Below are positions 8,593 to 9,010 of a DNA stretch of 32,947 nucleotides, one piece after another. Numbering within the stretch: the first letter of the stretch is position 1; each line of letters begins with the position of its first letter. The stretch lies in the IMG/VR virus record IMGVR_UViG_2541047823_000003; one strand, given 5' to 3'. Position numbers and translations under genes: made by a program. Under the pieces are notes generated by a model. It did not search any database, was not told the DNA's origin, and saw only the letters and a list, made by a program, of their open reading frames with translations. Origin of the DNA: a virus. Its lineage: Duplodnaviria > Heunggongvirae > Uroviricota > Caudoviricetes.

Positions 8593-9010
8593 CTATGATT
8601 TGTCGCCGTACTCGCTTTTGATTTGCTCTTCAGCCTGCTCCAGCCACATCTCCAGATCGTCAGTATCGAGGGCATCAATCTCCCCCGGCTGAAACCGGAA
8701 CCATCTCGCCAGCAGCCCCTGCGCCTGCGTCAGCGCCCTGGTTGCTCTCACCCATCCCCGTGATGAGCTGAAATCGTTTCTGTAACTGCAGGTAATCAGC
8801 CAGATCCATATTGTCGAGATCTTCCGGGAGAAGACCAGTACTGCGGGCAATCAGCGGTTCGTCCCAGTCTGCCGGGTTTTTGCTGATTTTGCGCACCTGC
8901 TTCAGGTCTTTTACCGTCAGGCGTTTCAGTTCAACCAGCTCAATTCTGGTACCTGCAGCAGTGGTGAAGGGATAAGACAATTTAAAAGTATCGGATGGGG
9001 TCTGTGACAT
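8593..9010 (-). CDS. Tail assembly chaperone, predicted frameshift-extended product (+1/-2 frame)
   Basis: ORF 8593..8850 overlaps the 3' end of 8675..9010 in the +1 frame with no plausible start or RBS of its own and an acidic C-terminus (WLEQAEEQIKSEYGDKS), the classic arrangement of conserved tail chaperone frameshifts. Confidence 0.4.
8675..9010 (-). CDS. Tail assembly chaperone (upstream frame of a chaperone pair, P2 E / Mu gp41-like)
   Basis: 111-aa acidic ORF immediately upstream of the tape measure gene; AGGAG-like RBS about 8 nt before ATG 9008-9010. Confidence 0.6.
   Translation of the reverse strand: MSQTPSDTFKLSYPFTTAAGTRIELVELKRLTVKDLKQVRKISKNPADWDEPLIARSTGLLPEDLDNMDLADYLQLQKRFQLITGMGESNQGADAGAGAAGEMVPVSAGGD

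Follow-up and report, generated by a model that had tools for sequence, protein, structure and literature searches.

A predicted +1 frameshift in the tail assembly chaperone gene of a BcepMu-like prophage

We analysed a 32,947-nucleotide stretch of viral DNA (IMG/VR record IMGVR_UViG_2541047823_000003), hereafter the window, and found that a tail assembly chaperone gene, G, and a second reading frame, T, overlap in a way that suggests a +1 frameshift, which is a known phage device in one of its rarer forms. The predicted product, GT, joins the chaperone to a peptide encoded in the +1 frame. The sequence comparisons described below lead us to a rough probability of 0.85 that this fusion is made, and they designate the putative site CGA_UUU_C as the place where the ribosome probably slips.

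The chaperone gene and its prophage

The element hosting the chaperone locus is a BcepMu-like prophage with a P2-type tail. The Escherichia phage PhiKM, classed in Bcepmuvirus, shares 99.7% DNA identity with the window, and the window DNA is matched in 640 of 5,426 complete E. coli genomes. All the features described here are on the minus strand, where the tail genes follow one another in the order sheath (P2-type, 11340..9913), tail tube (P2-type, 9913..9392; Pfam PF04985 Phage_tube, E 2.9e-53), small pseudogene, G ORF, overlapping +1 frame and tape measure (8517..5566; Pfam PF10145, PHROG 28). The overlap of G with the T frame is sited between the tube gene and the tape-measure gene, a position that is one of the marks of a G/GT pair.

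The G ORF (9010..8675) encodes 111 amino acids in the zero frame, from an ATG at 9010 to a TGA at 8677..8675, and its ribosome-binding site, AGGAG, was read from the sequence at 9022..9018, 7 nt 5' of the ATG. The protein matches Pfam PF10109 Phage_TAC_7 over residues 8-81 (E 5.5e-21, 74.8 bits vs a gathering cut-off of 25). This is the P2 gpE / Mu gp41 family, described as 'tail assembly chaperone proteins E, or 41 or 14'. G also belongs to PHROG 166 'tail protein' and bears the PGAP name 'phage tail assembly protein'; a search of NCBIfam gave no match for G, T or GT. The T frame ORF extends over 8850..8593 (85 codons counted from TTG). Translation in three frames showed that the two ORFs overlap at 8675..8850, over 176 nt, and the positions of their first codons (9010, 1 mod 3; 8850, 0 mod 3) put the T frame at +1, equivalently -2. 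This agrees with an earlier sequence-only reading of the window, which had reported an overlap of about 175 nt and a second frame at +1 relative to the first.

Several other features were observed in the vicinity. The pseudogene between the tube and chaperone genes (9108..9389) is interrupted by an in-frame stop at 9209..9207, the position of Trp61 in PhiKM and KP12, and its copy in E. coli IAI39 carries the PGAP label pseudogene ('internal stop'). A terminator-like hairpin, AGGGGCTCCGGCCCCT then TCTTCTT (9086..9101), lies between the pseudogene and the chaperone gene; it interrupts the expected single late tail operon and is kept in KP12 and Phi06_2974B. The gap from the T-frame stop to the tape-measure start is 75 nt long and holds a conserved GC-rich hairpin, ACAGCCGC-CAGTA-GCGGCTGT (8567..8587), devoid of a T tract, of which relatives retain the stem with a different loop. 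Finally, the tape-measure gene contains a tandem duplication of 261 nt, or 87 codons (6167..6701, 2.0 copies, 92% identical), at a site where PhiKM has a sequencing gap. The tape-measure protein has 983 aa in the window vs 821 aa in phage KP12. As the tape measure determines how long the tail is, a longer tail may be made in this lineage.

Evidence for coding in the +1 frame

We gathered 79 loci on viral contigs, 30 in genomes and a further 34 reached via BcepMu, Bise and Ralstonia-phage homologues, together with annotated reference phages, the scans being run with a 3-sequence alignment and with single proteins as queries. With a T-peptide HMM, 152 loci were scorable: relative to the chaperone frame the peptide is at +1 in 147 and at -1 in 2, and 3 indel variants have it in frame with the chaperone. 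The T peptide ...LLARWFRFQPGEIDALDTDDLEMWLEQAEEQIK... is nearly invariant in the window's clade, and the changes AGA>AGG, TTC>TTT and CGG>AGA leave it unaltered, yet introduce a stop in the G frame.

We also examined how variation is distributed over codon positions in 46 unique sequences. In codons 54-78 it falls on G position 3, with a heterozygosity of 0.35 vs 0.11 at position 1. Both G positions vary in codons 81-87, giving a mixed pattern directly 3' of codon 80. Over codons 88-98 most of the variation falls on G position 1 (T position 3), and in codons 99-111 substitutions are exclusively at that position. The G-frame stop itself shifts in relatives among codons 91, 105, 107, 108, 109, 112 and 116. 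A G allele of 90 aa, due to CAG>TAG at codon 91 (window 8740..8738; P0014, L021, L022), was found on 914 contigs, more than for every full-length allele listed, which suggests that the Gly/Ala-rich tail of G is dispensable. Judged by these patterns of substitution, we take the +1 frame to be a real coding sequence under purifying selection.

The T domain proper, LTQAQGLLARWFRFQPGEID..., is encoded at 8733..8596. The family alignment of T was matched to P2 E' with an hhalign probability of 96.6% (E 5.6e-10). Pfam PF06528 Phage_P2_GpE is the best match for T but is sub-threshold (E 0.01, 15.8 bits vs 23), the match being colinear with profile positions 4-36 of 37, and the domain falls in PHROG 8286 (E 7.9e-34). 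From the profile comparison, we consider that the T domain is homologous to P2 E' though it stands outside the PF06528 model. In the linker that precedes this domain, the likeness of the T frame across clades was, by eye, no different from off-frame composition.

These data bear on the idea that the overlap is a chance open frame, or that a fusion arises from RNA polymerase slippage. Open alternative frames are indeed common at 54% G+C, but a chance frame would not be expected to show purifying selection and homology to P2 E'. As for transcriptional slippage, no A or T run is long enough, the longest homopolymer being a G5 run that is excluded below. This explanation is thus extremely improbable.

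Another way to read the locus is that the T ORF is translated separately, as a small protein, from an internal start (GTG 8751 in the window, ATG in relatives). Gene callers do predict T, PHROG 8286 begins at this Val, and an ATG is present in the T frame before the domain core in 67 of 95 unique relatives, most commonly at +43 (34/95). However, among these 95 relatives no T-frame start is conserved in position: the GTG 8751 of the window is GCA in relatives, and the ATG of relatives is ACG in the window. The two T-frame starts of the window, TTG (8850) and GTG (8751), have no Shine-Dalgarno match and neither is conserved in relatives. A T-frame start with a 4-mer Shine-Dalgarno match occurs in only 9 of the 95 unique relatives, and 4 of the 95 have no start at all. 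Moreover, the homologous P2 E' is produced only as the E+E' fusion. A separate T protein therefore seems very unlikely to us. The sequence-only reading had stated that the second frame has no start of its own, which is not literally the case, TTG 8850 and GTG 8751 being present; the statement holds in the sense that neither has a Shine-Dalgarno sequence or is conserved. An independent start with a ribosome-binding site, which that reading had named as contrary evidence, did not emerge as a positionally conserved feature.

A conserved UUU_C at the edge of the chaperone domain

The proposed +1 shift site, CGA_UUU_C (8776..8770), comprises G codons 79 and 80 and the first base of codon 81. Its zero-frame TTT (8773..8771) is followed by a C (8770), which places it in the UUU_Y class, and UUU_Ynn is especially +1-prone in bacteria (PMC5009743). 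TTT then C is present at the conserved Phe in 92 of 92 distinct +1-type contexts, GC-rich hosts included. CGA precedes it in 73 of these 92 contexts; the BcepMu clade has TCC, GCC or TCT_TTT_C and the Bise clade has GCA or GCG_TTT_C. At the Phe position, the two -1-type relatives read TTA or ATC and Mu (-2) reads TTC.

In the 46 unique sequences of the window's clade, Arg79 (CGA) and Phe80 (TTT) show no synonymous variation, in contrast to all 12 of the remaining invariant residues that have degenerate codons within codons 60-78. In these loci TTT usage in the background spans 0.17-0.74, and the product over 10 clusters (<60% identity) is 10^-4.3, a rough estimate in which the background ORFs were called mechanically. 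CGA is retained in 8 clusters despite being a minority Arg codon. A different constraint at the nucleotide level could also, in principle, account for the conserved CGA_TTT_C. The search of the overlap for a slippery heptamer, which had been recommended by the sequence-only reading, led to this conserved candidate and to no -1 heptamer, and the whole 176 nt was too wide a field for the search. The comparison with orthologues, also recommended, supported the arrangement through both the conserved T frame and the TTT_C contexts.

We delimited the stretch over which, in all relatives, the T frame has opened and the G frame has yet to close. Assuming a conserved shift position, and counting from the conserved Phe codon, this permitted interval is -8..+24 nt (32 nt) and is common to all relatives. 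It is bounded by the latest T-frame opening, at -8 in the Ralstonia-like clade, and by the earliest G-frame stop, at +24 in L118; the Bise clade has its G-frame stop at +30, and the 90-aa E. coli allele has its own at +33. For the window's clade alone, the permitted interval is -14..+33. CGA_UUU_C is inside the universal interval, and in L118 no other shift-prone codon was found within it. If the prophages carrying the 90-aa G allele are functional, the slip site would be upstream of 8740. Reading the sequence of the interval, we found no codon that allows re-pairing 2 nt upstream, and the event would therefore be +1 and not -2. Finally, at codon 84 the G frame keeps Thr with all four codons and the T frame reads L, R, Q or P, so that the T-frame residues just 3' of the proposed site appear unconstrained. 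This pattern also fits a shift a few codons downstream of CGA_UUU_C.

Candidate slip sites elsewhere in the overlap

The second-best +1 candidate in the window's clade is GGG_A (8758..8755; G codon 85 and the next base), at which tRNA-Gly would move from GGG to GGA and give a product with the junction ...RFQLITG|WVRATRAL.... This position is within the interval permitted for the window's clade, and selection on the G frame is clear as far as Thr84 and Gly85, T-type variation being dominant from codon 88. Nevertheless, the base after GGG can be A, C, T or G, and L080 has GGC yet retains CGA_TTT_C. The Salmonella-like, Lonsdalea, Ralstonia-like, BcepMu and L118 lineages lack GGG at this position and have the same +1 arrangement. 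Since a shift at GGG_A also leaves the invariance of CGA_TTT_C unexplained, we consider it unlikely.

The choice by eye would be the G5 run in the context GCC_GGG_GGA (8686..8682), the one evident slippery run in the neighbourhood of the G stop, just 5' of it. A Mu-like -2 slip, or a +1 slip, could be imagined on this run, as it resembles the verified Mu -2 site CGG_GGG_CGA and re-pairing from GGA to GGG at -2 is possible. However, most relatives close the G frame before the run: the frame has already ended at codon 105 in 29 of 46 unique relatives, and for this reason we rejected the run as the slip site. The 90-aa allele stops at codon 91, also before the run. The T domain begins about 45 nt upstream of it, and the conserved T residues LLARWFRFQP, upstream too, are selected in the T frame. 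A Mu-type -2 event would call for a G run at which both frames are open in all relatives; the G5 run lies past the G stop of most of them, the permitted interval holds no other -2 re-pairing site, and a slip on G5 is hardly credible. We also discarded G_GCG_CA (codons 96-97), on which tRNA-Ala could slip by -2, and GGG_G (codon 98), on which a +1 slip could occur: the sequence at these codons is GGC_ACA or GGG_C/T/A in many relatives, and both candidates lie beyond the codon 91 stop of the 90-aa allele.

Single-ORF G-T fusions exist in public assemblies. They were considered as a guide to the junction and set aside, their junctions being scattered (codon 91, G5 run, upstream of the Phe, double indels); these natural fusions look like indel errors or mutations. 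In several public assemblies (P0003-P0005, P0007-P0009; L077), the G run at window 8682..8686 is 1 nt shorter, which joins the 111-aa G frame to the 29 C-terminal residues of T (...VSAG|EIDALD...). One cluster of such fusions is on 12 contigs and another on 8, and the shorter runs are either homopolymer sequencing errors or real slipped-strand variants.

How GT would be made

In the mechanism that we propose, most ribosomes would translate G, from the ATG at 9010 to the TGA at 8675, and release the 111-aa protein. A minority of ribosomes would shift +1 with tRNA-Phe in the P site on UUU (8773..8771): the tRNA (anticodon GAA), wobble-paired on UUU, would re-pair with UUC (8772..8770), and decoding would resume at AGC (8769) in the +1 frame, up to the TAG at 8595..8593. 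The predicted GT has 138 aa, consisting of G codons 1-80 (9010..8771) and 58 +1-frame codons (8769..8596, SSSRGWVRATRALTQAQGLLARWFRFQPGEIDALDTDDLEMWLEQAEEQIKSEYGDKS), with the junction ...KRF|SSSR..., in full ...LQKRF|SSSRGWVRATRALTQAQGLLARWF.... Residues 1-80 would form the TAC_7 chaperone domain, followed by about 13 linker residues and then by the T domain, the part with homology to P2 E'. If GT works as lambda gpG/gpGT and P2 E/E+E' do, the tape-measure protein would be coated by G and by the G part of GT, and tube subunits would be brought in by the T domain. With slips being rare, G would far outnumber GT; in lambda, the gpG:gpGT ratio is about 30:1 (PMC5009743).

We infer the shift at codon 80, its +1 rather than -2 direction, and its efficiency. 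A stimulatory structure downstream, which the sequence-only reading had expected to be worth searching for, was not found, the minimum free energy of the downstream RNA being no better than that of shuffled sequence (z = -0.48). Upstream of UUU_C there is no Shine-Dalgarno-like stimulator, and the A-site codon after UUU is not rare (CAG in the window; CUG, CAA or CGC elsewhere). Because these usual +1 enhancers are absent, the efficiency of the shift may be very low; it is probably low, and this would suit a chaperone pair needing far more G than GT.

Any role of the rare CGA codon, which would occupy the E site as the tRNA slips, is speculative. It could be that CGA_UUU_C is a dedicated, undescribed bacterial +1 cassette, in which the E-site CGA (rare, inosine-decoded) destabilises the ribosome-tRNA complex so that tRNA-Phe slips without a slow A-site codon, stop codon, Shine-Dalgarno sequence or RNA structure. 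Such a cassette would be conserved in phages of Gamma- and Betaproteobacteria and convergent with the PA-X sequence UCC_UUU_CGU. We offer this idea tentatively and find it rather doubtful. The BcepMu clade has UCC_UUU_CGC, a near-copy of the influenza PA-X cassette UCC_UUU_CGU, one base apart, and we found no published role for a CGA preceding a UUU_Y-type site.

Comparison with characterised frameshifts

The closest characterised system is P2 gpE / gpE+E'. Its chaperone is in PF10109, its extension, which is established by experiment, is homologous to the T domain by the hhalign comparison given above, and its genes follow the same order of sheath, tube, chaperone and tape measure. In both systems the shift would occur at the C-terminal edge of the chaperone domain, and the products are of similar length (142 aa in P2 vs 138 aa in the window). 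The difference lies in the event itself: P2 uses a -1 shift on the heptamer T_TTT_TTG (annotated GGT_TTT_TTG), whereas the window would use a +1 shift of a single tRNA on UUU_C, with no heptamer. In MAFFT and hhalign alignments of low confidence, the slip codon of P2 falls some 3 codons away from F80; exact homology of the two codons was therefore set aside, and only the same domain boundary is claimed.

Phage Mu gp41 / gp41-42 is the system that Xu, Hendrix and Duda reportedly verified in 2004 as a -2 frameshift. It shares with the window the +1/-2 target frame, the function, the site before the tape-measure gene and the Pfam family description ('E, or 41 or 14'). In contrast, the -2 slip in Mu takes place on CGG_GGG_CGA, which lies about 24 codons beyond the conserved Phe of Mu (TTC); in the window the G5 run is excluded and the permitted interval offers no -2 re-pairing.

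BcepMu is the closest named phage family. By homology, in the BcepMu record AY539836 (L088, 4603..5364) gp41 is the chaperone and gp42 the +1-frame T extension: gp42 is a +1-frame ORF that overlaps gp41 and carries the T domain, and TCC_TTT_CGC stands at the conserved Phe. The GenBank record differs from this layout, as it labels gp42 'G' and gp43 the slippage product, instead of a passage from gp41 to gp42; the window has no equivalent of gp43, the gap before its tape-measure gene being only 75 nt. For the BcepMu-like chaperone family, the literature consulted, which did not cover Summer et al. 2004 (BcepMu) and Xu et al. 2004, yielded no description of a frameshift, and protein-level evidence turned up for no member.

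In terms of the shift itself, the likeness is to the UUU_Y +1 sites, that is, the E. coli argI error site, Yersinia YopN-TyeA and influenza A PA-X, where a zero-frame UUU is followed by a pyrimidine and tRNA-Phe moves to UUC. UUU_Y is the likely shift site of YopN-TyeA, and UCC_UUU_CGU is the +1 cassette of influenza A PA-X (PMC5009743). The biological context of these sites is different; in the window the codon preceding UUU is CGA. Lambda gpG / gpGT offers the same pairing of a chaperone with a rare frameshift-extended form, but lambda is a siphovirus that shifts -1 at G_GGA_AAG, and no sequence similarity is expected.

Two relatives, L086 (Pasteurella phage AFS-2018a) and L121 (Volucribacter psittacicida), have the T domain in the -1 frame via G_GGA_AAG, as lambda does. 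Their heptamer lies about 8-9 codons after the Phe-equivalent position, and the fusion is annotated in neither record.

Tailed phages are known to use -1, -2 or +1 shifts for the chaperone extension (PMC5009743). The sequence-only reading had recognised here the conserved chaperone frameshift arrangement in a less common direction. We concur on the arrangement, in view of the position between tube and tape measure, the PF10109 match, the homology to P2 E', the purifying selection on T and the absence of a conserved start. The direction is also the less common one, P2 using -1 and Mu -2 (PMC5009743).

Implications for annotation and for the family

In the single PGAP record examined, that of E. 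coli IAI39, only the short 111-aa chaperone is annotated, so that the record omits an essential-looking predicted tail protein of 138 aa. The BcepMu GenBank record, for its part, places the frameshift on a different ORF pair. Within one protein family are found a -1 shift on T_TTT_TTG (P2), a -1 shift on G_GGA_AAG (Pasteurellaceae phages), a -2 shift (Mu) and, as inferred here, a +1 shift on UUU_C. The family is thus a compact natural system for studying how shift sites swap in evolution while the G:GT ratio persists.
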